The notes under the pieces were generated by a model. It had not been told where the DNA came from, searched no databases, and saw only the letters and a list, made by a program, of their open reading frames with translations. Source: a virus. From it: a stretch of 64,000 nucleotides of DNA. Numbering within the stretch: the stretch's first letter is position 1; each line of letters begins with the position of its first letter. Positions 1-45,786 of this stretch are shown here, piece after piece. A program made the position numbers and the translations under genes. The stretch is taken from IMG/VR virus record IMGVR_UViG_3300047550_006186; one strand, 5' to 3'.

Positions 1-225
1 AGTTCTTGGATCACAGTTAGTTTCTCACGCAATCTCAGAAGATCATTATCCATCATACGTATACGATCAATCAACGCAATCAGCACAGTGTTGGCCTCAC
101 TCAACACTGGTTTGACTTCTTGAGTGACCCAATTCCAAACGTAATGGATCATCCAACCCATACCTCCAGCAGCCACAATGGGAAATCCATATTTGCTAAC
201 CAGTTCAGCTATTTGATCCATATTC
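1..225 (-). CDS. Small single-pass membrane protein, partial (continues past window start); paralog of 827..1108
   Basis: ATG at 223-225 on minus strand; translation MDQIAELVSKYGFPIVAAGGMGWMIHYVWNW...LIALIDRIRMMDNDLLRLREKL parallels the 827..1108 product (FPIAAAGGAGYFVF...IMALDNRVKTMNHDIIRLDVL). Confidence 0.4.
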
Positions 226-242
226 CCATCCTTGCTTGTTTA

Positions 243-806
243 TCAAAACCACAAAAACAAACCATTCAAACTCAACAACAATCCCAATGCAGCTACACCA
301 AAGCTACCATAAAACAAAGGCATGCTCACAGCCAAAATACTGGCGCTTAATAACACAATTGCCAATTGGTAGGCAGTGCTGGCATATCCAATCCAAGGAC
401 TGCGCAATTTGGCCTCATCTCGTTCATGTTCCAAATGAGCTGCTTTTTGCCCAATCTCTTGTTTTTCCTGGTGCATACGTTGGCTTTCGGCCTGTAGCCT
501 TTGCTGATGTTCACCAGTTGCTTGCAGGGCCGCAGTTTCATAAATCACACCACGCACATTCTTGGCCTGATACCAACTCCATTGATTGTTGGCACTGATT
601 GTATTATTGAGAATAGTGCTGCTCAATTTGCCACCATACCAAGCATTGAGCGCCAGCAACAAAGCAAACAAATTGATAACCAATCCAGCTTTGTCTTTGA
701 TGCGGGCTTCTCTTTCACTGCGACTGCCTGGTAGAGGAGCGGGTGCATGGGGATCACGGGTTTGTTTGGTAAACATTTTGAGAACGGTGTCTACTACATT
801 GGCCAT
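243..806 (-). CDS. Hypothetical membrane protein (C-terminal hydrophobic segments)
   Basis: 187-aa ORF with N-terminal charged/coiled region and two C-terminal TM-like stretches; flanked by the two paralogous small membrane proteins. Confidence 0.4.
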   Translation of the reverse strand: MANVVDTVLKMFTKQTRDPHAPAPLPGSRSEREARIKDKAGLVINLFALLLALNAWYGGKLSSTILNNTISANNQWSWYQAKNVRGVIYETAALQATGEHQQRLQAESQRMHQEKQEIGQKAAHLEHERDEAKLRSPWIGYASTAYQLAIVLLSASILAVSMPLFYGSFGVAALGLLLSLNGLFLWF

Positions 807-826
807 ATTATTACTACTCTTGTTGA

Positions 827-1108
827 TCAGTCTCTACGTGCGTCATCTTTGCCGTTGGCACGTGCAACGCGATTGATGTCTGGCTTGACACCCAGACTGT
901 GGCTCATGAGCACATCCAATCTGATTATGTCATGGTTCATGGTTTTGACTCTGTTGTCCAAGGCCATGATAATACCACTCAACCCTTTTATGCTACTGGT
1001 TACTCCAGCCAAAATAAATTTGAGAGTGAGAAATACAAAATAGCCTGCTCCACCTGCTGCTGCAATGGGAAAGCCCACATCACCCACAAATTTGAAAAAT
1101 TCCATCAT
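827..1108 (-). CDS. Small single-pass membrane protein (holin-like/DUF2730-like architecture)
   Basis: 93 aa; N-terminal TM (GFPIAAAGGAGYFVFLTLKFILAGV) followed by an amphipathic helix; paralog of the ORF at 1..225. Confidence 0.4.
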   Translation of the reverse strand: MMEFFKFVGDVGFPIAAAGGAGYFVFLTLKFILAGVTSSIKGLSGIIMALDNRVKTMNHDIIRLDVLMSHSLGVKPDINRVARANGKDDARRD

Positions 1109-1145
1109 GCAAATATTTAAAAAGTATCGCTATACCTAATCTGAT

Positions 1146-1198
1146 GTGATTATTGACAAAAATAAGGATTGACACACCTGCAGAAAATGTTAGGATGC
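1146..1198 (+). promoter_or_regulatory. Sigma70-like promoter(s) upstream of the RlpA-like gene
   Basis: Two TTGACA hexamers (1146, 1170); the second is followed after 16 nt by TAGGAT; AAGGAG SD 8 nt before ATG 1219. Confidence 0.4.
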
Positions 1199-1218
1199 AA
1201 AAATTAAGGAGTCAGATA

Positions 1219-1569
1219 ATGAATAAATTGTTCACTTTAACCATGGCTGCCTTGTTGTGTCACACGAGTGCTACCGCAGCTTCCACAGTCACCACCAGCT
1301 GGTATGGCAAGAAATGGAATGGTAGGATCACTGCCAGTGGAGAAATTTTCAACCACCGCAAGATGACTGCTGCCCACAAAACTTTGCCTTTGGGCACACA
1401 ACTTTTGGTAGGGCATGGCAACCGCAAGGTGTTGGTGCGGGTGAATGATCGCGGCCCCTATGTGAAAGGAAGAAATTTGGACGTGAGTGAGGCAGTAGCA
1501 GTGCGCCTGGGCATCAAGAAAAAAGGTGTGTGCCGAGTGCATGTACAGGTGATCAACAAGCCACATTGA
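1219..1569 (+). CDS. rlpA: RlpA-like double-psi beta-barrel (DPBB) lipoprotein
   Basis: Signal peptide MNKLFTLTMAALLCHTSA; DPBB hallmarks SWYG...TASGE.F...TAAHKTLPLGT...VRVNDRGPY...LDVS.A.A..LG; AAGGAG SD. Confidence 0.75.
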   Translation: MNKLFTLTMAALLCHTSATAASTVTTSWYGKKWNGRITASGEIFNHRKMTAAHKTLPLGTQLLVGHGNRKVLVRVNDRGPYVKGRNLDVSEAVAVRLGIKKKGVCRVHVQVINKPH

Positions 1570-1717
1570 CATAATGTGCCCTGTTTCCTTGATCAAGGCA
1601 ATCTAAATCAATCCAAGCACGTCGCGTCTTCAGACCCATAGTAGTTCACATTCCAGGCAATGTGGGGTGTTTGACATTCAAGGAACAGTGTGTTATTGTT
1701 CATGTACAAAATATTTG

Positions 1718-2062
1718 ATGAAAAATGTAATGACATACAAGATGTTTTTGGATGACGTGCGTGAACCTTCTTGGGTACACAATGGCAATCCTGACGATTG
1801 GACCGTTTGCCGCAGCATGGAACAAGCTGTCAACGTGTTTGAGGACTTGGGTTGGCCACAGCTGATCAGCTTTGACCATGATCTGGGAAAAGATGTTCCC
1901 ACAGGCATGGATTTTGCACATTGGTTGGTCAACCAGGATCTGGACACCGGGACTATGCCTCTTGATTTTGAGTTCTGTGTTCACAGTGCAAACCCAGTGG
2001 GTGCTGCCAATATTCAAGGTCTGCTTGACAATTATCTGTGCAACAAAAAAGGTCAAAAATAA
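1718..2062 (+). CDS. Hypothetical protein (start uncertain; 1718/1730/1742)
   Basis: ORF 1667..2062; conserved-looking FLDDVREP...ISFDHDLG...DFAHWLV segments; no clear SD. Confidence 0.35.
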   Translation: MKNVMTYKMFLDDVREPSWVHNGNPDDWTVCRSMEQAVNVFEDLGWPQLISFDHDLGKDVPTGMDFAHWLVNQDLDTGTMPLDFEFCVHSANPVGAANIQGLLDNYLCNKKGQK

Positions 2063-3052
2063 ATGCACATGCCTTTTCAACTTCCACGTACTTTTTGTGG
2101 AGTAGCCAACTATACAAATCAACCATATGTGGTGGTGGGGGCACCCACAGACAGTGCCACCACTTTCCGCAGCGGCAGCAGGATGGGACCTGGCGCCATT
2201 CGTGATGCCAGTCTCATGCTGTGTGATGGCGAGCATGAATGGTTTCCTGTCAGTTTTGACCAAATGGTGGGTGACGCTGGTGACATGGGAATTGTCAGTG
2301 GCAACGTGCAACAAGCATTGGCCACTATCCAGGATATGCACTCCACCTTTGTGCAGAACAACAAACATGTGGTAACACTGGGTGGAGATCACAGCATAAC
2401 ACTGGCTTGTTTGCGCAGTCTATACAAAAAGCAGGGCACTATGGCAATGGTGCATTTTGATGCACATTGCGATACTTGGAGTGATCATTTTGGTGAAAAA
2501 TATGGCCATGGCACCTGGTTGCGCAATGCCATTGAAGAAGGCTTGGTTGACCCCAGGAAATGCGTGAGTGTGGGTGTCCGCAGTCCTGCAGAAAAATCTG
2601 TGAGAAAATGGTTGAGCGACCAAGGTGGCACAACCATCACTGCAAGACAGGCTGCGGGCTATACTGCAATTACACTAAGTGACATTATTGCATATGCGTG
2701 TACACATAATACACCCACTTACCTTAGTTTGGACATTGATTGTTTGGATCCAGCTTTTGCTCCAGGCACTGGCACACCTGAAATTGGTGGCTTGAGCTCC
2801 TTGTTTGTAAGTGCTATTATAGACCATTTAACACAAGTCAAATGGTGCGGTATGGATTTGGTTGAAGTAGCACCTGCATATGATCATAGCCAAATAACTG
2901 CATTGGCTGGAGCTACCTTTGTCTGGCAATATATTAGTATGCAAATTTTTCAAAATCAGAAAAAAATCAATTCAACAGTCAACTCGAAACAGATCAATCA
3001 AGAGCGTATTCAATTGTTGCCTGATTGGGTGAAAAATATGATCACATTGTGA
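2063..3052 (+). CDS. speB: Agmatinase (ureohydrolase/arginase family)
   Basis: Mn-binding ureohydrolase motifs GGDHSIT, DAHCDTW, SLDIDCLDPAFAPGTGTPEIGGLS; 329 aa. Confidence 0.8.
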   Translation: MHMPFQLPRTFCGVANYTNQPYVVVGAPTDSATTFRSGSRMGPGAIRDASLMLCDGEHEWFPVSFDQMVGDAGDMGIVSGNVQQALATIQDMHSTFVQNNKHVVTLGGDHSITLACLRSLYKKQGTMAMVHFDAHCDTWSDHFGEKYGHGTWLRNAIEEGLVDPRKCVSVGVRSPAEKSVRKWLSDQGGTTITARQAAGYTAITLSDIIAYACTHNTPTYLSLDIDCLDPAFAPGTGTPEIGGLSSLFVSAIIDHLTQVKWCGMDLVEVAPAYDHSQITALAGATFVWQYISMQIFQNQKKINSTVNSKQINQERIQLLPDWVKNMITL

Positions 3053-3074
3053 CTAGGCATAAGGATGAAACCAA

Positions 3075-3308
3075 GTGTTAACATATGAATTTGTGACTCT
3101 TTCACTATTATTTTTGACCTGTGTGATGTTGGTAGGATCAGTTGTTGGCGTCATATTGTGGCTGGCTTATCGTTTATTTTTTGCTGATCAAAGTCAGCGT
3201 TTGACAATTGTTGATAATGTTTTTATTTTCCTCACAATTGGTGTGATGGTCACTGCACTATCTTTTGGTGTGATGGTCACTGCACTATCTTTTGTGTTGG
3301 CCCATTGA
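3075..3308 (+). CDS. Small hydrophobic protein containing a 27-bp tandem duplication
   Basis: 77 aa, two TM-like segments; 3' end carries direct repeat ggtgtgatggtcactgcactatctttt x2 (VMVTALSFGVMVTALSF). Confidence 0.3.
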   Translation: MLTYEFVTLSLLFLTCVMLVGSVVGVILWLAYRLFFADQSQRLTIVDNVFIFLTIGVMVTALSFGVMVTALSFVLAH

Positions 3309-3329
3309 GCTAATATGTCAAAAAAATGG

Positions 3330-3357
3330 TTGACAATCTCAGCAACCATGCTATATT
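3330..3357 (+). promoter_or_regulatory. Sigma70-like promoter TTGACA-N16-TGcTATATT
   Basis: TTGACA 3330-3335, extended -10 TGCTATATT 3349-3357; followed by repeated GTGACATA / TTGACATGA half-sites and an 8-bp inverted repeat ttatgtca...tgacataa (3474-3498) ahead of rIIA. Confidence 0.5.
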
Positions 3358-3549
3358 GGTGACATAGAGCAAGGAATAGTTGACATGAGACTGGGTGACA
3401 AGCTCAAGCAGAGCATTGCAGATGCAGAACGAGACGCCCTGGGCGTGTGAACAATTGAAAAAAAATATTGTGTTATGTCATTTAATGAGTGACATAAGAC
3501 AATTTTATCATATTATGCATCTGTATAATACAGAGGAACTCTAGTAGTC

Positions 3550-5652
3550 ATGAAGATCAATCAAGTTGTGGAAGACGTTGAGCGCGGCAGTGTCACACAG
3601 GAACGGGGCTTTAGTATTCAGGCCAATGCTAGGGCTTTCCAGATTCTCAGCAGCAACCTGTATTCTGACAAGATCACAGCAGTGATCCGTGAGCTCAGCT
3701 GTAATGCACTGGACAGTCATGTGGCTGCCGGCAAGACAGGTACACCTTTTGATGTTCATCTGCCCAATGCCCTGGAACCCTATTTCAGTGTGCAGGATTA
3801 TGGACTGGGACTCAGCCATGATCAGGTCATGAGCATCTATACAACCTACTTTGAAAGCACCAAGACCAACACCAACGAACTGATTGGTGGCCTGGGCCTG
3901 GGCAGCAAGAGCCCATTCAGTTACACCAGCAGCTTTGATGTTGTGAGTGTTCACAATGGTGTTTCTCGTAGCTATGCCATGTTCATCAACGAGGCTGGCA
4001 AGCCCAGTGTGGCATTCATGGGCGAGACACCCACTGATGCCCCCAATGGGGTCAAGGTCAGCATGCCTGTCAAGAGCACTGATTTTCAGGGCTTTCAGGA
4101 AAAGGCTGCACGAGTGTTCAAGTGGTTCAGCCACCGCCCAGTTGTGAGTGGCAGCAGCAGCTTTGTGATTCCTGAACTCAAGATCAATTGTGATATCCAG
4201 GGCCAGGGTTGGCGCCTGCAGGACGTGAGTTTTGATCGCTACTCAAGGCACCAGGCAATGGCCCTCATGGGCAATGTGGCCTATCCGCTCAATGCTGCTG
4301 TGATCAACACCAAGTTCCAGCAACTGCTTGCGTGGCCAATTATTATTGACTTTGCTATTGGCGAACTTGATATCAGCGCCAGCCGCGAAGACCTCAGCTA
4401 TGATCCAGTGACTGTGCAGGTTATTGAAACCAAGCTTGGTCAGATCATCAAGGAATTGGAGAAGCGCATCCAGGACAAGTTCAAGAATGCTGCTACACTG
4501 TGGGAAGCACGTCTGCTGTTGAAAAAGATGACCTCTGATCGAACCCTGAACGATATCCTGTATGTGATGGAGAGAGGTGGCTTCAGGGTCATGTGGAAGG
4601 GCGAGGAGGTCAGCCACCATCACATCAATTGGCACAAAATGTTTCTGGATGTTGATACTGATCCTCATCCGCCAGTTTATGACGTGAGTACTTTCAGCCG
4701 TGCTCGCTATTGTAGAGCTATTGAACCCACAGACAAAGTTGTGTTCATCCTCAAGGATGTGAGTGATACAAGCGCTCGATGCAAGCTGGCCTATTACAAT
4801 ACCCAGAAGCGAGCTTTTATGATTGAAGCTGCCATTGGCAATGACGCCACCAAGTGTCCTCAGGTTGCTCGTCTTCTCAAGCACATTGGTGATCCGCCCA
4901 CCATCCTGGGGAGCAGCCTCTCCAAGGCTCCTCGCAAGAGCATGAAGTTCAAGGGAATTGTTTGGACTGGCAACAGCAGGACATGGCAGCCTCGCAAGAG
5001 CGATAACTGGACTGGAGAGAAGGAGCTCCTCAGTAGCCAGGGTGGTTATTATGTGACCATCAGTGGTTTGGATCCAGTTTACATTGTGAGTGCCAAGGAG
5101 GAAAAGCAGCTGAACCTCAATGATATTGTCCACAGTGCCCAGGCATTGGGCATCCTTGCCAAGACAGATCAGGTTTGGGGCATCAACAAGACCAACAGCC
5201 GTCTGATCAAGGATGAACCCAAGTGGATCAATGTGTATGAGTTCGTGCAGAAGAAAGTGCTTGAGCTGATCAGCAATGGCAACACTGCTGACCTGGTTCA
5301 TGCTCGTGAACAGTATGAATTGATCAACACCAAGTTCTACACCAATCATGATGTGTGGACTCGTATGTTTGGCAATCATGACAACAGCTTGGGCAAGTTT
5401 GTGCGGGCTTGGAAGAATGCTGCGGTGGCAGGCAGCAAGATGGACCTGCGGGCATTGCGCACACTTGTCACAGTTTATGGAGTCGACCTGGAGGGGCGCA
5501 AGACTGTCAAAACAGAGAGCTTGATTGATATGTGGAGTCAGGCCGTCAAGGACTATCCCATGCTGGTCAAGTTTGAGCGTGATAGTAGCGGAGATATCTT
5601 TTGGCCACTGCTGGTTGATTACGTGAATTTTGTTGACATTACCAAGAAGTAA
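3550..5652 (+). CDS. rIIA: rIIA-like protein with N-terminal GHKL (HATPase_c) ATPase domain
   Basis: 700 aa; GHKL N-box ELSCNALDSH and G-rich loop GGLGLGSKSPF; size and position immediately upstream of an unmistakable rIIB homolog. Confidence 0.8.
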   Translation: MKINQVVEDVERGSVTQERGFSIQANARAFQILSSNLYSDKITAVIRELSCNALDSHVAAGKTGTPFDVHLPNALEPYFSVQDYGLGLSHDQVMSIYTTYFESTKTNTNELIGGLGLGSKSPFSYTSSFDVVSVHNGVSRSYAMFINEAGKPSVAFMGETPTDAPNGVKVSMPVKSTDFQGFQEKAARVFKWFSHRPVVSGSSSFVIPELKINCDIQGQGWRLQDVSFDRYSRHQAMALMGNVAYPLNAAVINTKFQQLLAWPIIIDFAIGELDISASREDLSYDPVTVQVIETKLGQIIKELEKRIQDKFKNAATLWEARLLLKKMTSDRTLNDILYVMERGGFRVMWKGEEVSHHHINWHKMFLDVDTDPHPPVYDVSTFSRARYCRAIEPTDKVVFILKDVSDTSARCKLAYYNTQKRAFMIEAAIGNDATKCPQVARLLKHIGDPPTILGSSLSKAPRKSMKFKGIVWTGNSRTWQPRKSDNWTGEKELLSSQGGYYVTISGLDPVYIVSAKEEKQLNLNDIVHSAQALGILAKTDQVWGINKTNSRLIKDEPKWINVYEFVQKKVLELISNGNTADLVHAREQYELINTKFYTNHDVWTRMFGNHDNSLGKFVRAWKNAAVAGSKMDLRALRTLVTVYGVDLEGRKTVKTESLIDMWSQAVKDYPMLVKFERDSSGDIFWPLLVDYVNFVDITKK

Positions 5653-5693
5653 GTTATATTATTATCAGCCAAAAACACAGGAGAAATTGGCAA

Positions 5694-7082
5694 ATGACTA
5701 TTCCGTATATTGTTACCAAGGATAGCGTGACCGTCATGTATAACGGTGTGACCACCACCGTCCGAGACGGTATGATCAACTACGCCAGCCTACGCGAAGC
5801 AATTCGCAACAAGGATTGGGATAGCATTCCCAATCTACTCAACCCTGCCCGTGCAGTTGAATCTTTTGGCAATGGTGCCATTGAGGTTCGTGACGGAGAG
5901 GTCTACTACCAGGGCGAAATCATGCGCAACGGGCTAACCCGTCGCATCCTGGAAATGGTGGGAGAGGGCTTTGACGCTGATCCGCTAACCAAGTTTCTAG
6001 GCAAGCTCATGGACAATCCCAGCAAAACTGCTGTGGATGAATTGTATTCTTGGCTTGAAGGCACCAACCTGCCCATCACAGAAGATGGTTGCTTTATGGC
6101 CTACAAGAAGGTGGGTGAAGATTATCTGGATTTCTATACTGGCAAGGTTCTCAACAAGCCTGCAGGGTTCATGACGGATGCGGATCTGGAATACATCAAG
6201 AACACACAGGGTGTGGTGAGTGTGGAAGTCACGGATGGTGTGACCACAGTCAGCATGCCACGCAACAAGGTTGATGACAACCGTGACCGCACCTGCAGCC
6301 AGGGCCTGCATTTCTGCAGCCTCAGTTACCTGCCCCACTATCATGGTGGACGTGGTCGCGTGCTGCTGGTCAAGGTTGATCCTGCAGATGTGGTGAGCAT
6401 TCCCAGCGATTACGACAATGCCAAGGGCCGTGCATGGCGATACCAGATTGTGGGCGAGCACACAGATGGTGAAACTCGTGAAGCCTACGCTACTCCTGTT
6501 GCCACACCTGATGGCAAGCCCACCTATGGACGCCAGTTTCTCACAGAGGATGTCAACACCCTGGTGCTGGGTGTGAACTTTGGCACCGAAGATCGCGCAA
6601 CCCTGGTGCGTGATATGATCGCAGATTGCAGTCACCAAGTAGGCACCAGCCGCACTGGAGAACAGGGTCGGGATGATGGTTTTGATGATGCCTGGAACAA
6701 GGCAGATGCAAACCTCAGCCGGTTTACTGGCAGCAACATGCGTGAGGCTGTGGAATATGCACAGGCATATTTTGAAGGCTACGACAAGTGCAATGGTTTT
6801 GCACCCCAGGTGCAGGTAAACAACACAGAGGCTCAAGATCAGGCCAATGTGTATTCATATGAAACCGTTGAGCAGCGTGATGAGATTGTCCGAGTGCTGA
6901 GCATGCCCATCAACAAGAATGGTGCTCGTCATGGATATGACAATGGCTATGACGATGGCCAGCAAGATGCTGAAAGTGACAAGCGAAATGGCCGATCCTT
7001 CAACCTAGAAGCTGCCATTCCAGGTGGCAAGAACTACCGAGACGGTTATATCAAAGCATATGTACTCCACTACTGCTGGTGA
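5694..7082 (+). CDS. rIIB: rIIB-like protein
   Basis: Strong similarity to T4 rIIB C-terminal core: ITEDGCFMAYKKV..., RTCSQGLHFCSLSYLPHY, RVLLVKVDPADVVSIPSDYDNAKGRAWRYQIV (T4: TQTCSRGLHVCSKSYIRHF...VKVHPRDVVSIPIDYNDAKMRTCQYEVV). Confidence 0.85.
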   Translation: MTIPYIVTKDSVTVMYNGVTTTVRDGMINYASLREAIRNKDWDSIPNLLNPARAVESFGNGAIEVRDGEVYYQGEIMRNGLTRRILEMVGEGFDADPLTKFLGKLMDNPSKTAVDELYSWLEGTNLPITEDGCFMAYKKVGEDYLDFYTGKVLNKPAGFMTDADLEYIKNTQGVVSVEVTDGVTTVSMPRNKVDDNRDRTCSQGLHFCSLSYLPHYHGGRGRVLLVKVDPADVVSIPSDYDNAKGRAWRYQIVGEHTDGETREAYATPVATPDGKPTYGRQFLTEDVNTLVLGVNFGTEDRATLVRDMIADCSHQVGTSRTGEQGRDDGFDDAWNKADANLSRFTGSNMREAVEYAQAYFEGYDKCNGFAPQVQVNNTEAQDQANVYSYETVEQRDEIVRVLSMPINKNGARHGYDNGYDDGQQDAESDKRNGRSFNLEAAIPGGKNYRDGYIKAYVLHYCW

Positions 7083-7138
7083 CCCAACTCCAATAACTGG
7101 GCGGGCCTAAAAACCTGCCCTTTTTCATATAAAAGGAG

Positions 7139-7696
7139 ATGAAACTGTTTGTATTAGAATTTCTGGCCTTTGGTGCCTGGGGATTTTGGTTGTTGACTCT
7201 AGGCGGTGCGGTGCTCATGAGTGAGCTTTTGGACAAGGATGCACCAGGTTGGGCCATTATCCTGGCTATTGTGACAGTGGTTATCCTGGCTGTGTTTGGT
7301 GGTATCAATCCCATCCAGTGGATTCTACACAATCCTTGGGAAACTGTGCTGGCCCTAGTTGGTTATTTTGCAGTAGGTGCAATATGGAGCCTGATCAAAT
7401 GGTATTTTTTCCTGCTGGGCGTTCGCCGCCACATACAAGATATGCGCAGAGAGCATCCAGACTGGGTCGACAAGGATGTTGTCAACCTACTCAGATGTGC
7501 TGGTGTGTGGGGTGAATTTCCTCCGCAGGTCAGAGACAACAAAAGCCGAGTGATCGGATGGATGGCACTGTGGCCAGCCAGCATGGTGTGGACTGTGATC
7601 AACGATCCTGTTCGCCGAGCTTGTGAGGAGATCTACAACCGACTGGGCGGGGTTTATCAGGCCATCAGCAACCGAGTTTTTCGCGATTTCAAATAA
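7139..7696 (+). CDS. Multi-pass membrane protein, unknown function
   Basis: 185 aa with 3-4 hydrophobic helices; GGAG-like SD (aaaaggagatg). Confidence 0.5.
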   Translation: MKLFVLEFLAFGAWGFWLLTLGGAVLMSELLDKDAPGWAIILAIVTVVILAVFGGINPIQWILHNPWETVLALVGYFAVGAIWSLIKWYFFLLGVRRHIQDMRREHPDWVDKDVVNLLRCAGVWGEFPPQVRDNKSRVIGWMALWPASMVWTVINDPVRRACEEIYNRLGGVYQAISNRVFRDFK

Positions 7697-7721
7697 CCAA
7701 AATCAGCAAGATGTCAACAAC

Positions 7722-7755
7722 AGGTGGTGAATCAAGTTCACCACCTTTTTTCATG
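7722..7755 (+). terminator. Rho-independent terminator
   Basis: aggtggtgaa-tcaag-ttcaccacct stem followed by TTTTTTC. Confidence 0.5.
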
Positions 7756-8079
7756 GCCAGTCCACACCCAAAATCTCTATGCTCAAAATAGTGTAGTCAT
7801 CGCCAATTTTGGCAACCACTTGTTCCATGAGATTTTGATGACTGTTCAAAATAAACACTCTTGTTGATTGTTGCTGTTGGGGAGTGACTATTCTAATCAC
7901 ATAATAGAGCATGTACAATCTCCCTATGACATGCAATGTTGACTATTTATCAAAAACAATTATCAGCATGGATAACTATATGTGTCCAGAGGATTTGACA
8001 TGTATCGTCCATGTCAAAATTAGGAGGAGATTGTATTGAATAATTTCATTCATTTCACAAATAATCTACTGAGATTAAA

Positions 8080-8117
8080 TATCTCAAGTGCAGCAATGCA
8101 CTTGAGATATTTTTTTT
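8080..8117 (+). terminator. Strong hairpin + T8 run immediately upstream of the DnaE-like start codon
   Basis: atctcaagtgca-gcaa-tgcacttgagat (12-bp perfect stem) + TTTTTTTT, ending 8 nt before ATG 8126. Confidence 0.5.
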
Positions 8118-8125
8118 GAGGCACC

Positions 8126-9925
8126 ATGATTGAACTGAATGACCCCACTGTAATTGCACATACTGACTCACAAGCATTGAACGTTTTGTTGGCAAAAATC
8201 CAAAGACCCATTCCTGATGAATCCAAATATTTGGAACGACTGGAGCAAGAGCTCAAAATAATAGATGAACAAAACTTCAGTCCACATTTTTTGAGAGTGT
8301 TGGAAGTTTTGGACCTTACCAAAGACATACCACACATCACTAGAGGCAGTGCAGGCAGTTCACTTGTTTGTTATCTACTAGGCATAACAGATGTTGATCC
8401 AGTCAAATATGACATTCCATTGGCTAGATTTTTGAACCCCCTGCGTGATGATTTGCCCGACATTGACATAGATTTTGGTCAAAAATTTCACAAAGAAGTA
8501 TTGGAACGTATCTATCGCCACTGGCCAGGTAGAGCTGCCCGCCTCAGCAACTACGTGAAATATCGTGAAAAAAGTGCCCAAAAAGAAGCATTGAAGAGAG
8601 TGTGTGGCATCAAGGGCAAAGCTGCCAACCAACACAAGCCAGAACACCTAGTGCCCAAACACAAACACAAGGAATGGAAAAATTTATCAGAAAGGTTGTT
8701 GGGCAAAAAGAAATGTATCAGCAAGCATCCTGGCGGTGTGATTGTTTTTGACCAACCGCCTGCCAAAAGTTTGTTGTTACAAAAAGACACCCAAATCTTG
8801 CTGGACAAATATGAGTGTGAAGATCTTGCGCATTTGAAAATCGACGTGCTCAGCAACAGAGGATTGAGTGTGCTGTGGGATTGTAGTGGTCAAGGTCCGT
8901 TTGAATACAACCATGAATGCGATCAGACCCTTGCCATGCTGGCAGCAGGCAACAGTTTTGGGATCATCCAAGGAGAATCTCCCGTGATGCGGCGAACACT
9001 TCGCGCTCTCAAACCTCAAACGGTGGATGATCTCACACTTGCCACAGCATTGATTCGTCCTGCTGCCTTGACTGGTAGACAAAAGGGTGTGTTTTTTAGA
9101 GAATGGATTGGACACAATAAACAGCCTGGTGCCCTCAAACACAAGGATGGATTGGTATTTGATGAAGATGCAATTGATTTGATCTGCAAGGTATTGGATG
9201 TGGATGAGTTTGAGGCTGACATGTATCGCCGCGGATTCGTCAAGAAAAATGAAGAGATGATGTTTCAATTTTTGGAGAAGATTGGCAACCATCCACGTAG
9301 AGAAGAGATAATGTATCTGCTCAAAAACATGGATGGTTTTGGACTATGCAAAGCCCACAGTGTGAATCTGGGTAGGTTGGTATATGCTCAAGCTTGGGAA
9401 AAACAGCACAATCCTCAAAAGTTTTGGTTGGCTGCTCTACAAAACGCATGCAGCATGTATAGACCCTGGGTGCATATTGAACACGCAAAATCAGCTGGCT
9501 GGCAAATACAGGGCAAGAAACGACCCTGGCTGGTCAAAAACAACATATTATACAATGAAAATTGGCAAGTTCCTTTGTTTGACAGCCATTGGGATCAATT
9601 GGCACACATGGGATTTTGGACACACAAGTCTTGGATACCAGGCACCTATTATCAACAAATGGGCACCACAGCAGCATTTTGTGGAATAATTGCTGCACAC
9701 AGAATTTATCATTGTGGCCAAGGAGAGTTTGTTACTTTTGCCACATTGGGCACAGGTGCTGGTGAATTTTTGGAAGTTGTTTTGCCAGGTATGATCAATG
9801 TCAAAAATACAGCTTTTGTGGAAGGCATGGGAGAAGTGGAAGTCAAAAACAACAACACTGTTATATATACTAGAACATTTGAAACATTGTCCACAAGAGA
9901 ACATGCTAAGCACCACGACAAGTGA
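8126..9925 (+). CDS. dnaE: Minimal DnaE-like (C-family) DNA polymerase catalytic core, lacking PHP and C-terminal accessory domains
   Basis: Matches Pol III alpha palm/fingers motifs: RGSAGSSLVCYLLGITDVDP (DnaE [20 protein letters not shown]), ARFLNPLRDDLPDIDIDF (ERFLNPERVSMPDFDVDF), KHPGGVIV, LKIDVLSNRGLSVL, DGFGLCKAHSVNLG; only 599 aa. Confidence 0.7.
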   Translation: MIELNDPTVIAHTDSQALNVLLAKIQRPIPDESKYLERLEQELKIIDEQNFSPHFLRVLEVLDLTKDIPHITRGSAGSSLVCYLLGITDVDPVKYDIPLARFLNPLRDDLPDIDIDFGQKFHKEVLERIYRHWPGRAARLSNYVKYREKSAQKEALKRVCGIKGKAANQHKPEHLVPKHKHKEWKNLSERLLGKKKCISKHPGGVIVFDQPPAKSLLLQKDTQILLDKYECEDLAHLKIDVLSNRGLSVLWDCSGQGPFEYNHECDQTLAMLAAGNSFGIIQGESPVMRRTLRALKPQTVDDLTLATALIRPAALTGRQKGVFFREWIGHNKQPGALKHKDGLVFDEDAIDLICKVLDVDEFEADMYRRGFVKKNEEMMFQFLEKIGNHPRREEIMYLLKNMDGFGLCKAHSVNLGRLVYAQAWEKQHNPQKFWLAALQNACSMYRPWVHIEHAKSAGWQIQGKKRPWLVKNNILYNENWQVPLFDSHWDQLAHMGFWTHKSWIPGTYYQQMGTTAAFCGIIAAHRIYHCGQGEFVTFATLGTGAGEFLEVVLPGMINVKNTAFVEGMGEVEVKNNNTVIYTRTFETLSTREHAKHHDK

Positions 9926-10020
9926 ACTACTGTTGGTTTTTAGGGCGTGGTAGTTCACTATGCGTTTCGCAGCAGCATATTTGAAAATTGGCTGAATTCG
10001 TATTTTGACATCAAAAAGAG

Positions 10021-10048
10021 TTGACTTGATTTAAATTTGCCATATTAT
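10021..10048 (+). promoter_or_regulatory. Sigma70-like promoter TTGACT-N16-TATTAT
   Basis: Upstream of ORF 10074; AAGGA SD. Confidence 0.4.
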
Positions 10049-10073
10049 GATCCTTGAAAGCAAGGACATATAG

Positions 10074-10277
10074 ATGTTATTCCGAGTTGATTATACCAGC
10101 TTTGCACGAGATCGCAATGGTGATTGGGACAGGCAGGAAGGCTGGTTCCTCACTGAGGGCAAGGACGAATCCAACGTCCTGAACTTTTATGCCAAGAACG
10201 GCAAGTTTCAAGGTCTCAGGGTCACACCCGCAAGTGATCAGGACAAGATCAATTACGGCGTACTTCCAACTGATTAA
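10074..10277 (+). CDS. Hypothetical small protein (67 aa)
   Basis: ORF with own promoter and SD. Confidence 0.45.
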   Translation: MLFRVDYTSFARDRNGDWDRQEGWFLTEGKDESNVLNFYAKNGKFQGLRVTPASDQDKINYGVLPTD

Positions 10278-10305
10278 GTCTTGATCCAATCCAAGGAGAA
10301 CAAGT

Positions 10306-10554
10306 ATGACATCAATTTTTTATGGGACGGTGGTGCCTGATAGGCTGCCTTCTGGCCAATTTCGTCGTTTGATGGAACATGAAGTTCCTTGCCATCAGGA
10401 AGATGGTGGGCAGGCCATGATTATAGAGCTGGGGTCTGGTGCTGAAGCAGAGATGTTTGTCAGGCTACAAAGCTGGGACACGCTGCGTGAACATCCGCAG
10501 ATGCAGATGTGGATTGGCAAGCGGATTAGCGTGACTGTGGAAGTATTGGATTAA
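10306..10554 (+). CDS. Hypothetical small protein (82 aa)
   Basis: AAGGAG SD 7 nt upstream of ATG. Confidence 0.45.
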   Translation: MTSIFYGTVVPDRLPSGQFRRLMEHEVPCHQEDGGQAMIIELGSGAEAEMFVRLQSWDTLREHPQMQMWIGKRISVTVEVLD

Positions 10555-10561
10555 ATTTTGG

Positions 10562-10589
10562 TTGACATTGTCTCAACATGTGTTATGTT
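10562..10589 (+). promoter_or_regulatory. Sigma70-like promoter TTGACA-N16-TGtTATGTT
   Basis: Same TTTTGGTTGACA context as the 12.5-14.5 kb promoter array. Confidence 0.5.
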
Positions 10590-10599
10590 GTGAGATAAA

Positions 10600-10824
10600 A
10601 TGAAAGAAATGCAAATGCCAAAAGATGCATTTAATGTTGGCGACCGAGTCAATGTGGTTCGAACCCGTCACGGATGGTATGACGGAAGCTTGCAGGCAAC
10701 CGTGGTTTCCAGGCATCAACGAGACACAGGCACTTTTAGCTATATGGTTAGGGATCTGGATGGTGCCGTGCATGAGGTCAATCATACACGCGACATGTAT
10801 AAGTCTTTGGGCAACAACAGATGA
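10600..10824 (+). CDS. Hypothetical small protein (74 aa)
   Basis: ATG 11 nt downstream of promoter-proximal leader. Confidence 0.4.
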   Translation: MKEMQMPKDAFNVGDRVNVVRTRHGWYDGSLQATVVSRHQRDTGTFSYMVRDLDGAVHEVNHTRDMYKSLGNNR

Positions 10825-10889
10825 GCTTTTTGTGGTTGACATCACCAACGTCTGTGCTATAGAGCGCTTACAAAGCAAGGAATATTAAA

Positions 10890-11603
10890 ATGGAATTTGA
10901 TGGTGCAATGCCAGGATTGCCAAAGTGGCCCCAGATGCGTGTTTGGGGGCCCAGCATCACTCCCAAGCAGGCACAGGAGATCATCATCCGCACCGATCAT
11001 TTCTGGCAGGGCGGTGGCGGCAACGATCATGATTTCCAGCGGCGGCTGTGTGCTGCTGTTGACTTCCCCTACATGGAATATGGCGATCCAGACACAGACT
11101 GGAATGCCTACTACGAGGGTACGGAGCGGTTCCGTACCAGCATTGGATACGTCAACACAGAATACGTCCGCAATGGTTGGATCAGCAACTCATTCATCTT
11201 TGGCCCTAGTGGCTGGTGTTGGCCTGATGGAACAATTCGCTTTGTCCACAATGTGGGTAAGTGGCCTTCTGTGGAGGAAATCCTGGAAGATTGGCAGGCG
11301 ATTGCCAAAGCATGGCCCTTCCTAGACCTTGATGCCTGTTTGATGAGCGGCGAAGGCAGTGAGGACAATATCAAGCCCGTTGCGATTATCCAGGTCAAGG
11401 ATGGCATTGCCACCGCACATGATCCTGACACGTATGAATTTCTGTCAAGGTTTGGTCAAGTAAGTGACAATTTTGAGCTGCCAGACCTAGGTACAGCGGT
11501 GCGCAGTATCCTGATGAGTTCTACAAATCGTGAACAGCGTTGGACCATAAATGAGGTCAAGGAAATGGTCACCCAGGTTCGCAACAACCTGTCACAGTCT
11601 TAA
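10890..11603 (+). CDS. Hypothetical protein (237 aa)
   Basis: Long ORF, SD-like aaggaatatt upstream. Confidence 0.5.
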   Translation: MEFDGAMPGLPKWPQMRVWGPSITPKQAQEIIIRTDHFWQGGGGNDHDFQRRLCAAVDFPYMEYGDPDTDWNAYYEGTERFRTSIGYVNTEYVRNGWISNSFIFGPSGWCWPDGTIRFVHNVGKWPSVEEILEDWQAIAKAWPFLDLDACLMSGEGSEDNIKPVAIIQVKDGIATAHDPDTYEFLSRFGQVSDNFELPDLGTAVRSILMSSTNREQRWTINEVKEMVTQVRNNLSQS

Positions 11604-11883
11604 TATAACACCACACCCAAAAATTCAGATGTCAAGCAAGGAAGTATAACATGACAACGTGGGCTCTAGTGCTGATCCTCTACACAGGATTTAACTATCA
11701 AATGACCAACGTGCCAGGCTTTGCCACAGAAGCAGTTTGCGTGAGTGAGGGCAAAAAGTGGCAAGAACGTAGGCGTTCCACACATACCTATCACTGCGTG
11801 GAAGTCCAAGGCAATAGCAAGAACTGATTGAGATTTTTGGCGTTATCCCAACGTCAATTTTACACAACATTCTGACAAGGAAT

Positions 11884-12282
11884 ATGCAAATGAAGTTTCG
11901 CAACAAGATGCTGGCTCTTCCCATCCTGGCCCTTCTGGGTCTGGCAGGGTGCGATCGCACGGACGCTGACGTGGCCAGCTACAACATCAGCAAGGCGGCT
12001 GACAACTTCGAGATCAACCGCCGCATCGTGTTCATCAATACCTTCACCAACGACTACGTGCTGGTGATCGAGGGTCTGTGCAGCCTGGGCAACAGTGACA
12101 CCAACCTGCGCATGAGCGTGACCTGCAAGACCGGCCCCAGCACCTTCAAGAAGCATCACCTGGGCCTGGGTGCCAACGTGACCTTCGTGAGCGAGCAGTT
12201 GGATGCGGCCAAGGCCAGCACCTACCACTACCGCGTGGTGTTCAAGCCCAGCACGCTCATGCCCAACATCGAGATCCGATAA
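11884..12282 (+). CDS. Lipoprotein (high-GC, probable xenolog)
   Basis: Signal peptide + lipobox LLGLAGC; about 60% GC versus about 43% flanks. Confidence 0.55.
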   Translation: MQMKFRNKMLALPILALLGLAGCDRTDADVASYNISKAADNFEINRRIVFINTFTNDYVLVIEGLCSLGNSDTNLRMSVTCKTGPSTFKKHHLGLGANVTFVSEQLDAAKASTYHYRVVFKPSTLMPNIEIR

Positions 12283-16063: not shown

Positions 16064-16654
16064 ATGAGGAACCAAACACGCATGGAAAACAAGGCCTGCA
16101 CTAATCAAAATCTACCCAGCTTGGAATCCAACAATAGTTATTTCTTTTGTGAAGATTTCAGCAACAAAACAGTCAAGCCTGTGATTGAATGGATTCTGGG
16201 CAACAATTTTCTACCCAACAGTCAGCGTCCGCCCCATCTCACATTGATCATCAACAGTCCGGGAGGAGAAATGCCCGCAGCATTTGCCCTGATAGATGTT
16301 ATCAAAGGCAGTGCCATCCCCATTCACACATTGGGACTAGGGCAAATCAGCAGTTGCGGTATCCTGACTTTCATGAGCGGAGAAAAAGGGCATCGCACAC
16401 TCACACCCAACACAAGCATCCTCAGTCATCAATGGGCTTGGGGTAGCTATGGCAAGGAGCATGAATTGATGGCTCGTGTGAGAGAATTTGAACTCACCAG
16501 CCAGCGTATGATCAATTTATACAAACACTGCACTGGTTTGAGTGAGACAAAAATACGTGAAGTGTTGCTGCCTGCCAAGGATGTATGGTTGAGTGCCGAA
16601 GAAGCAGTTGAATTGGGCATTGCTGACTCTATCCAGTCCACATATGCAAAGTGA
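16064..16654 (+). CDS. clpP: ClpP-like serine protease (S14 family)
   Basis: LIINSPGGEM, GQISSCGILTFMSG (Ser), ILSHQW (His), C-terminal EAVELGIADSI typical of ClpP. Confidence 0.7.
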   Translation: MRNQTRMENKACTNQNLPSLESNNSYFFCEDFSNKTVKPVIEWILGNNFLPNSQRPPHLTLIINSPGGEMPAAFALIDVIKGSAIPIHTLGLGQISSCGILTFMSGEKGHRTLTPNTSILSHQWAWGSYGKEHELMARVREFELTSQRMINLYKHCTGLSETKIREVLLPAKDVWLSAEEAVELGIADSIQSTYAK

Positions 16655-20751: not shown

Positions 20752-21510
20752 ATGAGAGAGATCAACAAACACAATACAACCTTGTTTTTGATGCAAGTGC
20801 TTGCACATGGTGTGCTGCTGAGCATGCTAGTTTGGGCCAGTTGGCCACTTTGGTTTTTCACCTGCATAGGTTACTTCCTTCTGAGTTGTGTGGGTACTAG
20901 TATTGGTTATCACAGGCTATTTGCCCATGGAAGCTTCCAATCACCCAAATGGTTTGAACAATCCTGCTTGCATCTGGGCAACATGGCATTAGTGGGCAGC
21001 AGCATCAGCTGGACGGCCAGCCACAGAGCGCATCATCACCACTCGGATCAAAGCCCAGCAGACACCCACAGTCCACACCACCATCCCTGGTATCGCATAA
21101 TCCTGTTGGCCATGTTTCAACCCGTAAGCATGCGATATGTGAAAGATCTAGCACGCAACCATGATCATGTTTGGTGGCACAAAAATTATTTTCTAGTTCA
21201 TGGTGCGGTGTGGGGTCTAGGATTGCTTCTGGCACCACAATTCACGGCAGCATTTGTCATTGCACCACAAGCACTAACCTGGATTACGGGTGCCAGCTTG
21301 AACTGGGTGAACCACAAATGGGGCTATAGCAATCACAACACATGCGATCACAGTACCAACAATTGGTTCTACGCATTGGTATTTTGGGGAGAAGGCTGGC
21401 ACAACAACCATCACCACAATCCCAAACGATCCTATTTTGGTGAGCGTTGGTGGGAGATTGACGTTTCTGGCATGATTATCCGAATGATTGAAAAAAAGAA
21501 GTTGACTTAA
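20752..21510 (+). CDS. Delta-9 acyl-lipid/fatty-acid desaturase
   Basis: Three His boxes HRLFAH, HRAHHHHSD, EGWHNNHHHNP; 4 TM architecture. Confidence 0.7.
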   Translation: MREINKHNTTLFLMQVLAHGVLLSMLVWASWPLWFFTCIGYFLLSCVGTSIGYHRLFAHGSFQSPKWFEQSCLHLGNMALVGSSISWTASHRAHHHHSDQSPADTHSPHHHPWYRIILLAMFQPVSMRYVKDLARNHDHVWWHKNYFLVHGAVWGLGLLLAPQFTAAFVIAPQALTWITGASLNWVNHKWGYSNHNTCDHSTNNWFYALVFWGEGWHNNHHHNPKRSYFGERWWEIDVSGMIIRMIEKKKLT

Positions 21511-21587: not shown

Positions 21588-22652
21588 ATGAACAAAGAAT
21601 ACGATTTTCTGGTCTTCATTGGGCGGATGCAGCCACCCACTGTGGCACACTGCTCCATTATCGAGCAAGCTCTCCTAAAATCAAACAAAGTGATAGTGGT
21701 GCTGGGAAGCTGCAATAGTGCTCGCACCCTTCGCAACCCTTTCACATATGATGAGCGAGTTCTCATGCTGCGACGGTGCATGACCAACTCACAAAACGAA
21801 CAGATTATCACAGTGCCCATGGACGACTACACCTACAACGATGAAATGTGGGTGGTCAAGTTGCATGAGACTGTGAACCGTGCAATTTTGGAAAACATTC
21901 CTGGCAATTCACAATATTGCTATAACAACGGTATGATCAACCAGCGTGTGGGCCTGATTGGCCACGCCAAGGACAACACCAGCTACTACCTCAACCTGTT
22001 TCCTGAATGGGGCAGCGAGAACGTGCGCAATATTCCAGGAGTTGATGCCACCAGCCTGCGTGATGCATTTTTTGCACAAGGCATGCAGAGTGTGAACGAC
22101 ACGCTGGTGCGGCCTGGTGTGCGTGAATTTCTGGAGGATTTCATCCAGACCCTTGCTTACATCAACCTGCGCGAAGAGCGTGAATTTGTGGCCAAGTACA
22201 AGAAAGCCTGGGAAGCTGCGCCCTACCCGCCCACGTTCGTCACGGTTGATGCTGTGGTGGTGCAGAGCGGCCACGTGCTGTTGGTCAAGCGGGGAGCCAA
22301 TCCTGGCAAGGGGATGTGGGCCATGCCTGGTGGGTTCCTGGATCCCCTGGAGACCCTGGAACAGGGTGCCATGCGAGAGCTGCGGGAAGAGACCAAGCTC
22401 AAGGTGCCCGAACCTGTGCTGCGTGGCAGCATTGTGGCGCGGGAAACATATGATCATCCGCACCGCAGCAGCCGTGGCCGCACCATCACCACAGCATTTT
22501 TGATCCACCTCAAGCCTGCTGCCAAGTTGCCCAAGGTCAAGGGCAGTGATGATGCAGCAGAGGCTGATTGGGTCAGAATTGCTGACCTGGACCCGCACAC
22601 CTTGTTTGAAGACCACTACCATGTGATCATGAATTTGGTACGCAGGATCTAA
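21588..22652 (+). CDS. natV: Bifunctional NMN adenylyltransferase / Nudix ADP-ribose pyrophosphatase (NatV/NadM-Nudix)
   Basis: N-terminal nucleotidyltransferase (VFIGRMQPPTVAHCSII) + Nudix box GGFLDPLETLEQGAMRELREETKL. Confidence 0.8.
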   Translation: MNKEYDFLVFIGRMQPPTVAHCSIIEQALLKSNKVIVVLGSCNSARTLRNPFTYDERVLMLRRCMTNSQNEQIITVPMDDYTYNDEMWVVKLHETVNRAILENIPGNSQYCYNNGMINQRVGLIGHAKDNTSYYLNLFPEWGSENVRNIPGVDATSLRDAFFAQGMQSVNDTLVRPGVREFLEDFIQTLAYINLREEREFVAKYKKAWEAAPYPPTFVTVDAVVVQSGHVLLVKRGANPGKGMWAMPGGFLDPLETLEQGAMRELREETKLKVPEPVLRGSIVARETYDHPHRSSRGRTITTAFLIHLKPAAKLPKVKGSDDAAEADWVRIADLDPHTLFEDHYHVIMNLVRRI

Positions 22653-38286: not shown

Positions 38287-38400
38287 TTTGCCCAGGTGGT
38301 GAAATTGATAACCACCCTGCTTGCGTCTGTAGGCCCACTAGTAGAGTCAGTGGTTTGAGGGGCCATCCAGTGGAGGTTCAAATCCTCTCGGATGCACCAA

Positions 38401-45709: not shown

Positions 45710-45786
45710 GCCCGTGTAGCCCAACCGGCAGAGGCGAAGGTCTCAAAAACCTTCAAGTGTCAGTTCGAATCTGACCACGGGTACCA
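45710..45786 (+). tRNA. tRNA, anticodon CAA (Leu by anticodon) with atypical short variable loop; CCA encoded
   Basis: Acceptor gcccgtg/cacgggt, D-loop with GG, anticodon loop ctCAAaa, T-arm gtcag-ttcgaat-ctgac, discriminator A + CCA. Confidence 0.55.

Follow-up and report, generated by a model that had tools for sequence, protein, structure and literature searches.

Does a very large bacteriophage carry its own route from agmatine to homospermidine? The question is raised by a gene at positions 2063-3052 of a stretch of 64,000 nucleotides (the window, hereafter) from the IMG/VR virus record IMGVR_UViG_3300047550_006186. A preliminary description had read this gene as an agmatinase and had joined it with a homospermidine synthase (HSS)-like gene at 56094-57500 into a pathway from agmatine to putrescine to sym-homospermidine. 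Our answer is a qualified yes. The window comes from an uncultured huge phage whose genome is ~0.4-0.5 Mb in size. It carries the genes for an agmatinase-lineage ureohydrolase with a binuclear Mn centre and for an NAD-dependent HSS, two enzymes that in succession would probably turn agmatine into homospermidine. The in vivo substrate of the first enzyme, the flux between the two and the purpose of the route are what we infer.

The first gene is an open reading frame (ORF) on the + strand (2063..3052), running from ATG to TGA and coding for 329 amino acids. Its product has the ureohydrolase fold (PF00491, 265.1 bits vs. a cut-off of 22, residues 22-289, E 9.9e-79) and is matched by the NCBIfam agmatinase model NF002564 at E 3e-93 and by the E. 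coli SpeB structure 7LOL at E 1.2e-55; these matches to ureohydrolases are well beyond chance. PHROGs has no family for this protein or for HSS. The three ureohydrolase motifs claimed earlier are all found in this ORF, on the + strand: GGDHS (aa 107-111; 2381..2395), in which His110 is the Mn ligand equivalent to E. coli His126; DAHCDT (aa 133-138; 2459..2476), with the Mn ligands Asp133, His135, and Asp137; and SLDIDCLDPAFAPGTGTPE (aa 222-240; 2726..2782), where Asp224 and Asp226 are the Mn ligands equivalent to E. coli Asp230 and Asp232. His149 (codon 2507..2509, + strand) corresponds to the catalytic His163 of E. coli, and Glu268 (codon 2864..2866, + strand) to Glu274, which binds the guanidinium group. 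In all, E. coli H126, D149, H151, D153, D230, D232, H163, and E274 have their aligned counterparts in the six Mn ligands, His149 and Glu268 of the phage protein; there is no substitution among the metal-binding Asp/His residues, and the whole set is invariant in 26/26 sequences of the phage clade in the alignment. The roles of the E. coli residues, and of a loop that contacts the substrate, have been described (PMC8125230).

The protein ends in a strain-specific extension of 19 residues (2993..3052, + strand), delimited by DNA alignment with a sister strain (L197): the sister stops at TCG AAA TGA, the window has TCG AAA CAG, and the sequence beyond is unrelated. The tail lies outside the catalytic domain and is missing in 25/25 aligned homologs.

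That the gene codes for an intact ureohydrolase is clear; that its substrate is agmatine is a separate matter. The protein scores 312.4 bits with NF002564 (cut-off 302) and 211 bits with TIGR01230 (cut-off 174.3), and fails the formimidoylglutamase model (116 bits vs. a cut-off of 229) and the arginase model (76 vs. 228), so that in a comparison of SpeB, arginase (rocF) and formiminoglutamase (hutG) profiles the best match is agmatinase. As a control, four characterised enzymes were cut to the same region as a trimmed phage protein. With NF002564, E. coli SpeB reached 490 bits, the B. thailandensis agmatinase 426, the trimmed phage protein 309, guanidinobutyrase (GbuA) 285, and proclavaminate amidinohydrolase (PAH) 259; with TIGR01230 the scores in the same order were 384.3, 220.8, 209.9, 208.5, and 202.9. 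A pass of the TIGR01230 "equivalog" was rejected as proof of an agmatinase, and the model is useless for separating these enzymes because GbuA and PAH pass with the phage protein's own score. NF002564 ranks the enzymes in a sensible order. The profile call of agmatinase is right in direction but marginal. Thus the designation as a phage-encoded agmatinase held as to an intact ureohydrolase whose best profile is agmatinase, but was too confident as to agmatine specificity. Because the profile evidence is marginal, agmatine specificity rests on residues, phylogeny and context.

Two residues bear on the substrate. The first is Trp139, the last residue of DAHCDTW (2459..2479, + strand), which occupies the position of E. 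coli Tyr155. It is invariant in the phage clade and is Trp also in the B. thailandensis agmatinase; the position is Trp or Tyr in agmatinases and Asn in GbuA, PAH, and arginase, with the caveat that an actinobacterial/Firmicute "Arg-Pro" group of unassigned function carries Trp there too. The residue here forms part of the pocket wall around the amino group of agmatine and is the counterpart of the carboxylate-binding Asn in arginase (PMC8125230). The second is Asp55 (codon 2225..2227, + strand), placed by alignment in the loop that contacts the amino end of the substrate (PMC8125230). It aligns with a Glu of the B. thailandensis agmatinase and with E. coli Glu69, and is invariant in 26/26 phage-clade sequences; the position is Pro in GbuA and Gly in PAH. 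For the enzymes of Burkholderia and Thermoplasma (T. volcanium), a Glu at this position has been suggested as what stabilises the amino group (PMC8125230). Together, Trp139 and Asp55 match agmatinases rather than guanidino-acid hydrolases, which would support an amine-tailed substrate.

Phylogeny points the same way. In a neighbour-joining tree (60 sequences, 264 columns, 100 bootstraps), a distance method with few characterised references, E. coli SpeB, the B. thailandensis agmatinase, HSS-linked alpha-proteobacterial SpeB, Burkholderiales genes and the viral proteins form one agmatinase clade with 84% bootstrap, and GbuA, PAH, and the "Arg-Pro" group fall outside it. The viral proteins are a single clade (80-86%), found on 56 IMG/VR contigs by an alignment-guided scan and sister to Burkholderiales speB (97%). 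The agmatinase is a vertically inherited gene of this viral clade. Among the phage relatives both the agmatinase and HSS are under purifying selection, with pN of 0.16-0.30 vs. pS of 0.65-0.86 and dN/dS of ~0.10-0.14 where dS is unsaturated.

The closest cellular relatives, speB genes of Rhodoferax, Polaromonas, Hydrogenophaga, and other Burkholderiales, are 46-51% identical to the phage agmatinase and share with the viral clade the signatures Cys/Thr-Asp-Gly, Thr-Trp, and HGTW. They differ in context: at ~17 loci speB is always followed by a gene for a DAO-family FAD oxidoreductase, whereas the phage has no DAO gene. These oxidoreductases are 52-92% identical among themselves (e.g., L116 5902-8187 and L124 5920-8337), and the pair is apparently an uncharacterised two-gene operon (loci L116-L136 and others). 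We also considered whether they might be the same as a DAO protein near the HSS gene of a phage relative; the two are unrelated and the window has neither.

Set against bacterial SpeB (E. coli 7LOL/7LBA; B. thailandensis 4DZ4; EC 3.5.3.11), the phage protein has in common the arginase fold, all the Mn ligands, the catalytic His, the Glu, the clade in the tree, an aromatic residue at the Tyr155 position (Trp, as in B. thailandensis) and an acidic residue where B. thailandensis has Glu. It differs in its overall identity (~40%), in its NF002564 score (312 vs. 426-490), in not keeping Trp68, in having Trp152 in place of the Met after HGT, and in its 19-residue tail.

The second enzyme is HSS. Its ORF (56094..57500, + strand) codes for 468 amino acids, and the product matches Legionella HSS (2PH5) at E 2.4e-145 over query residues 8-467 and that of Blastochloris viridis (BvHSS, 4PLP) at 4.4e-137 over its full length. 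It contains the domains PF03435 (Sacchrp_dh_NADP) and PF16653 (Sacchrp_dh_C); no NCBIfam model matched it. The eight substrate-binding/catalytic residues of BvHSS listed by Krossa et al., N162, E210, W229, E237, H296, E298, Y323, and D361, are present in the phage protein as N159, E209, W228, E236, H295, E297, Y316, and D354. Also kept are Glu117 and Tyr123 of BvHSS (phage E109 and Y115) and a GFGSIG Rossmann motif for NAD binding (56136..56153, + strand), whose G15, G17, and G20 are invariant columns; the catalytic residues, Glu117, Tyr123, and GFGSIG are invariant throughout an alignment of 28 sequences. Of the "ionic slide" (Asp94, Glu117, Glu237), E109 and E236 are conserved, and Asp94 is Asn86 in the phage and Gly in Legionella HSS; the BvHSS paper calls only Glu117 and Glu237 highly conserved (Krossa et al.). 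What had been called HSS-like is a bona fide HSS homolog of full length. Homology predicts the HSS step strongly, since no catalytic or substrate residue described in the literature is missing. The protein is 57-58% identical to alpha-proteobacterial HSS, 41% to that of phage phiRSL1 and 36% to that of phage Motura; because the latter values are lower than the first, the gene looks like an acquisition separate from the HSS of those two phages.

The two enzymes fit each other. HSS requires putrescine; agmatine is neither used nor bound in its active site (PMC13625781). The route from agmatine through putrescine to sym-homospermidine is therefore chemically coherent, and the presence in the same genome of an enzyme with a strict need for putrescine supports an agmatine-to-putrescine role for the ureohydrolase. 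Calling the pathway "split" was apt, as the two genes are unlinked and 53 kb apart in the window. On a JGI contig of 485,281 bp (Ga0480368_0000003) the agmatinase (P0044) lies at ~162 kb and HSS (P0152) at ~439 kb, 276 kb apart. Another agmatinase (P0030) and another HSS (P0143) each have 461,985 bp as the length of their longest contig, both out of one sample series, so that this contig probably has the pair as well. Counting the window, divergent huge phages with the pair thus number at least two and probably three. Each gene keeps its neighbours in relatives: cREC_REC, agmatinase, rIIA, rIIB, and Pol III around the one, and GGACT, HSS, and a PP-loop ATPase around the other.

The neighbour on the immediate left of the agmatinase is a cREC_REC gene ("cyclic-phosphate processing receiver"; PF20274, 3e-24) at 1718-2062 on the + strand, or 1667-2062 in a longer reading with a GTG start. 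Its TAA abuts the ATG of the agmatinase in the junction CAAAAAAGGTCAAAAATAAATGCAC (2060..2065, + strand), with AAGG ~11 nt upstream, from which we infer that the two may be co-translated. The adjacency is kept in relatives L001-L004, loosened in L005/L006, and lost to a distance of 5.5 kb in L019. cREC_REC has no apparent functional tie to polyamines.

The same two enzymes, in consecutive steps, are known from bacteria. Some alpha-proteobacteria have been shown experimentally to make homospermidine with an arginine decarboxylase (ADC) derived from ornithine decarboxylase (ODC), SpeB, and HSS encoded in one cluster, the pathway being known from Rhodophila globiformis and Magnetospirillum gryphiswaldense (PMC13625781). 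Among the cellular relatives of the phage protein, three genomes of Acetobacterales proved to have a speB-odc-hss cluster (Rhodopila L131, Falsiroseomonas L152, and Neoroseomonas L164), the order in Rhodopila being speB, an Orn_Arg_deC gene, and hss. SpeB of these clusters is 41-47%, and HSS 53-55%, identical to the phage proteins. The bacterial genes are adjacent and accompanied by an AR-fold ODC-like ADC, whereas the phage genes are 53 kb apart and a decarboxylase was not found; the phage agmatinase, moreover, is closer to the Burkholderiales genes than to SpeB of the clusters.

Several observations weigh against a phage-encoded route from agmatine to homospermidine and need to be faced together. 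A Pfam search of every ORF found no decarboxylase of any family (Orn_Arg_deC, pyruvoyl, or other) in the window. In IMG/VR the agmatinase was found on 56 viral contigs and HSS on 40 with no contig in common, and the partner is missing even from agmatinase contigs as long as 425-608 kb and from HSS contigs of 310-382 kb; the scans used alignment-guided exact peptide patterns and most contigs are fragments, which makes the absences soft. NF002564 is cleared by only ~10 bits with GbuA not far below, and TIGR01230 does not discriminate. E. coli Trp68, the proposed holder of the agmatine amino group, is not conserved; judged from the alignment, of the residues in the alpha2-eta2 loop that could hold the ammonium group, Trp68 is absent, and Asp55 is a candidate for the role. 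Finally, the closest cellular sister genes sit in the speB-DAO operon, whose role could be catabolic.

How far do these points favour other explanations? The one that survives best is that the agmatinase and HSS are independent auxiliary genes whose co-occurrence is incidental, the former raising putrescine or removing agmatine and freeing urea nitrogen, the latter using putrescine of the host. The lack of overlap in IMG/VR, where several contigs of >250 kb carry just one of the genes, speaks for this explanation; the wide spacing, both here and in Ga0480368_0000003, suits it as well, and phages phiRSL1 and Motura do have HSS without agmatinase. We nevertheless consider it unlikely, if by no means negligible: HSS cannot do without what the agmatinase makes (PMC13625781), alpha-proteobacteria have the same pairing as a proven pathway, the pair recurs in divergent huge phages, and the IMG/VR absences are soft. 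A universal linkage of the two genes was dropped on account of the missing contig overlap. The pairing is evidently lineage-specific, and each enzyme is evidently useful alone. With these provisos we favour a functional module without an operon, both of its genes being syntenic in related huge phages.

A second explanation concerns the ureohydrolase itself, which in vivo might act not on agmatine but on another guanidino compound such as 4-guanidinobutyrate, 3-guanidinopropionate, N1-aminopropylagmatine, or N1,N9-bis(guanidino)homospermidine. The profile controls lend themselves to this, the TIGR01230 score being indistinguishable from those of GbuA and PAH and the NF002564 score lying only 24 bits over GbuA and 117-181 bits under the true agmatinases; scores against the Protein Data Bank (PDB) are also close (SpeB 192, PAH 178, GbuA 176), and the Burkholderiales sister group is uncharacterised. 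SpeB homologs are moreover known to be promiscuous toward agmatine-like substrates (PMC13625781). The active site argues otherwise, since the acidic Asp55 and the aromatic Trp139 suit a cationic tail where the guanidino-acid enzymes have Pro/Gly and Asn, and the tree parts the phage protein from GbuA and PAH at the 84% node. Neither SpeY/DHS nor an aminopropyltransferase, which would make the alternative substrates, was found in the window, and the phage HSS belongs to a putrescine-dependent route that has been described as excluding SpeY and being excluded by it (PMC13625781). On balance another substrate seems improbable.

If the ureohydrolase is an agmatinase, the proposed sequence of events would be as follows. 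Agmatine would be supplied by the ADC of the host, or else a phage gene lying beyond the stretch covered would provide it. The phage agmatinase would then split agmatine into putrescine and urea, as its homology, catalytic and specificity residues, and phylogeny suggest. HSS with NAD would join two putrescines into sym-homospermidine with release of ammonia, a step for which the homology is strong. The outcome would be a two-step supply of a triamine, independent of S-adenosylmethionine and not reliant on SpeB, SpeD, or SpeE of the host. From general polyamine biology, the triamine might serve translation, replication, and the neutralising and packaging of a genome of ~0.4-0.5 Mb.

The origin of agmatine deserves comment, the agmatinase having been described as the entry point of the pathway. 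An agmatine-using enzyme is indeed present, but the description assumes an agmatine source, and no ADC was found in the window or in ~10 kb to its left; ~85% of the genome lies outside the region seen. A tblastn search of the window and of all loci with the ODC-like ADC of Rhodopila gave no match in the window, and the flanks of the agmatinase and HSS genes of relatives yielded no decarboxylase. Agmatine is presumably made by the host.

Alternatively, putrescine from the agmatinase could serve another end. Phage phiW-14 has alpha-putrescinylthymine as a DNA hypermodification, and a modification of this type, or a conjugated polyamine, could be imagined here. The support is circumstantial: in phiRSL1 and Motura, HSS is accompanied by glutathionylspermidine synthetase (PMC9992855), an R2K ATP-grasp ligase comes directly after HSS in a relative, and the window codes for an Amidoligase_2 protein and a GGACT protein. 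Yet the window showed no genes for a hydroxymethylase, an HMU kinase, or a transferase, nothing informative matches the amidoligase, and the presence of HSS gives putrescine a direct fate, all of which leaves a different end for putrescine very unlikely.

The reading of a phage-encoded agmatinase-HSS route presupposes that the window is viral, and here the preliminary description needs correction. It had spoken of a T4-like phage. By T4-type replication genes, the yardstick for a T4-like (Straboviridae) assignment, the phage falls outside that group: its replicase is Pol III alpha-like, and the matches of its Pol III, rIIA, and vault-like proteins are distant (32-39%) and mostly to uncultured huge phages of 462-735 kb. 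The Pol III fragment (8126-9925) has its best phage match in the uncultured huge phage LR756508 (484 kb) at ~32% identity. rIIA (3550-5652) is matched best by Rhodobacter phage RcXuper and relatives (32-35%), with the huge phage LR756511 (595 kb) near at 33%; rIIB follows at 5694-7082, and both genes are widespread. Megablast of positions 1-12000 of the window (GC content of the window, 45%) against 50,697 deposited phages found no nucleotide-level relative. The closest relatives, at 79-81% identity, are contigs classed as viral in IMG/VR; contigs with agmatinases 55-84% identical are syntenic with the window and reach sizes of 293, 460, and 485 kb, the huge relatives being of 420-485 kb. The window is also dense in short ORFs without matches and has tRNAs, a homing endonuclease, and TnpB genes. 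That the window is instead a fragment of a bacterium or of another mobile element, speB and hss then being ordinary cellular genes, might be argued from the failure to identify a capsid or terminase gene within it and from its many cellular-type genes (a sigma-70 family factor, ClpP, and an outer-membrane beta-barrel, with CsgG/CsgF just upstream), but merits hardly any belief in view of rIIA and rIIB, the viral contigs at 79-81% identity, the huge-phage matches of Pol III, rIIA, and the vault-like protein, the short ORFs of no known match with the tRNAs, homing endonuclease, and TnpB, and the like character of the syntenic contigs of 293-485 kb.

How does the phage route compare with what is known from other viruses? 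The nearest parallels among phages are Ralstonia phage phiRSL1, whose HSS has been validated biochemically, and Achromobacter phage Motura, both jumbo phages with bacterial-type HSS (PMC9992855). In these, HSS goes together with glutathionylspermidine synthetase and there is no agmatinase (PMC9992855), whereas the window phage has one. The comparison with chloroviruses that had been drawn earlier holds for HSS, but not for the conversion of agmatine. PBCV-1 resembles the window phage in having a virus-encoded route that passes through the arginine/agmatine branch and ends in HSS; it encodes ADC, agmatine iminohydrolase (AIH) plus N-carbamoylputrescine amidohydrolase (NCPAH), and HSS (PMC9992855). 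It thus uses two steps, AIH and NCPAH, with an ADC of its own, where the window phage has a single ureohydrolase; the two HSS proteins are 34-35% identical, and the chlorovirus host is a eukaryote. No AIH or NCPAH domain was found in the ORFs of the window. Imitervirales use an arginase-ODC-HSS route (PMC9992855), which like the present one combines a viral putrescine step with HSS but is entered by ornithine decarboxylase. Some IMG/VR viral contigs of 58-382 kb have an AR-fold ornithine/arginine decarboxylase-like gene (L084/L085 4892-5866 and L090 5697-6755) 3-5 kb upstream of an HSS gene whose product is 45-46% identical to that of the window; this amounts to another way for viruses into the synthesis of homospermidine.

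A survey of 2023 recorded HSS in phiRSL1 and Motura only, and a single phage homolog of agmatinase, in an uncultured member of Caudovirales (CAB4123030; PMC9992855). Microcystis phage MaAM05 has a speB gene of the agmatinase family, 32% identical to that of the window. The window agmatinase belongs to the large monophyletic viral clade of 56 IMG/VR contigs. Searching the literature on jumbo, huge, or mega phages for agmatinase brought up nothing of relevance. In sum, the two-step agmatinase-HSS route is known in bacteria and no description of it in a phage was found; compared with the other viral routes, the end enzyme is the same and the entry enzyme is different.

The remainder of the window is rich in other genes, some of them next to HSS. 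About 290 nt downstream of HSS is a gene for a PP-loop protein of 210 amino acids (57788-58420, + strand) with the TilS N-terminal domain only (TIGR02432, 117 bits vs. a cut-off of 93.6). It also follows HSS in L021/L022, there with the R2K ATP-grasp ligase in between. A polyamine-related function of this gene was rejected, as the protein is a homolog of the TilS N-domain. The Amidoligase_2 protein (42230-43657) and the GGACT protein, an AIG2-like gamma-glutamyl cyclotransferase (52682-53119), are both encoded on the - strand, and the GGACT gene is found upstream of HSS in L021/L022 also. The Amidoligase_2 protein has no match in PDB or NCBIfam, and action of either protein on gamma-glutamyl-polyamines would be pure speculation.

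Farther along, positions 58961-61492 (+ strand) code for a vault-like protein of 843 amino acids, with a PF11978 shoulder domain (72.5 bits) and weak matches to vault repeats. It matches eukaryotic major vault proteins in PDB at E 1e-15 to 1e-13, its only homologs in the phage database, at 39% identity and 96% coverage, come from a trio of uncultured huge phages (462-735 kb), and PHROGs has no family for it; a protein of this kind is unusual in phages. A bilin-synthesis pair is formed on the + strand by a heme oxygenase (PF01126; 25596-26114) and the adjoining ferredoxin-dependent bilin reductase (PF05996; 26114-26743). Heme oxygenase/bilin reductase pairs of this kind are known from cyanophages. 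The relatives of the window phage point to proteobacterial hosts. An NAD salvage set comprises an NMN adenylyltransferase-like/Nudix fusion (21588-22652) and a nicotinamide phosphoribosyltransferase (NAMPT; PHROG 448, 1.9e-154; 22821-24206).

Genes of TnpB/IS605 OrfB (Cas12f1-like TNB) lie on the - strand at 39727-40920, 48676-49794, and 50182-51375, with a fragment at 25019-25414. The copies at 39727-40920 and 50182-51375 are nearly identical by eye, which suggests an insertion element that multiplied inside the phage genome. A serine resolvase is encoded at 36708-37310. The sigma-70 family factor (26987-28411, + strand), 474 amino acids long, has detectable regions 1.2, 2, 3, and 4 and thus is a full sigma of the housekeeping type. 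There are four tRNAs: Leu-GAG (38323-38399), Leu-CAA (45710-45786), Gln-TTG (45818-45893), and Gly-TCC (48442-48516). Other genes of cellular type code for ClpP (16064-16654), a fatty-acid desaturase (20752-21510), an ADP-ribosylglycohydrolase (37360-38286), a secreted non-specific endonuclease (38401-39204), and a DUF1194/VWA protein (30439-31044).

Beyond the window, ~1-8 kb to its left (L196 10949-17240; L001 1505-7796), are genes for CsgF- and CsgG-like proteins, parts of the curli secretion channel, and for a protein with faint curlin repeats. The same block has FecR-like and PA14-domain proteins and a CHASE2-guanylate/adenylate cyclase, followed farther out by dUTPase, ClpS, and HSP20; the CsgF/CsgG block recurs in relatives L002, L197, and L198. 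Host-like genes also occur near the agmatinase in relatives, namely those for LpxC of lipid A synthesis (L019 17094-17996), a PHO4 phosphate transporter (L002 8623-9624), and a homolog of Sbt_1-type bicarbonate transporters (L019 2821-3780).

Can the history of the pair be told as well? A fuller account, which we put forward as tentative, is that an apparently freshwater clade of huge phages (0.42-0.49 Mb) captured the agmatinase once from a Burkholderiales-like source, kept it by purifying selection, and in several lineages combined it with a separately acquired HSS. This may be the first phage polyamine route of several steps that is entered via agmatinase, independent of S-adenosylmethionine and giving the phage a triamine of its own for translation and for condensing and packaging a genome of half a megabase.

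In closing, viruses depend on polyamines, and genes for polyamine enzymes form a well-established class among the auxiliary metabolic genes that viruses carry; the 2023 paper is the only systematic survey of them (PMC9992855). The present case is neither a new enzyme nor a new mechanism, but an extension of known biology. It adds agmatinase as a stable and widely distributed gene of a huge-phage clade, and the phage pair follows the final two steps of a bacterial pathway whose characterisation dates only from 2026. The viral entries to homospermidine now number three: AIH/NCPAH, ODC, and agmatinase. If confirmed, the route would add to the known cases of metabolic reprogramming by viruses in freshwater and would give a means of testing why phages of very large size make the investment in a polycation supply of their own.

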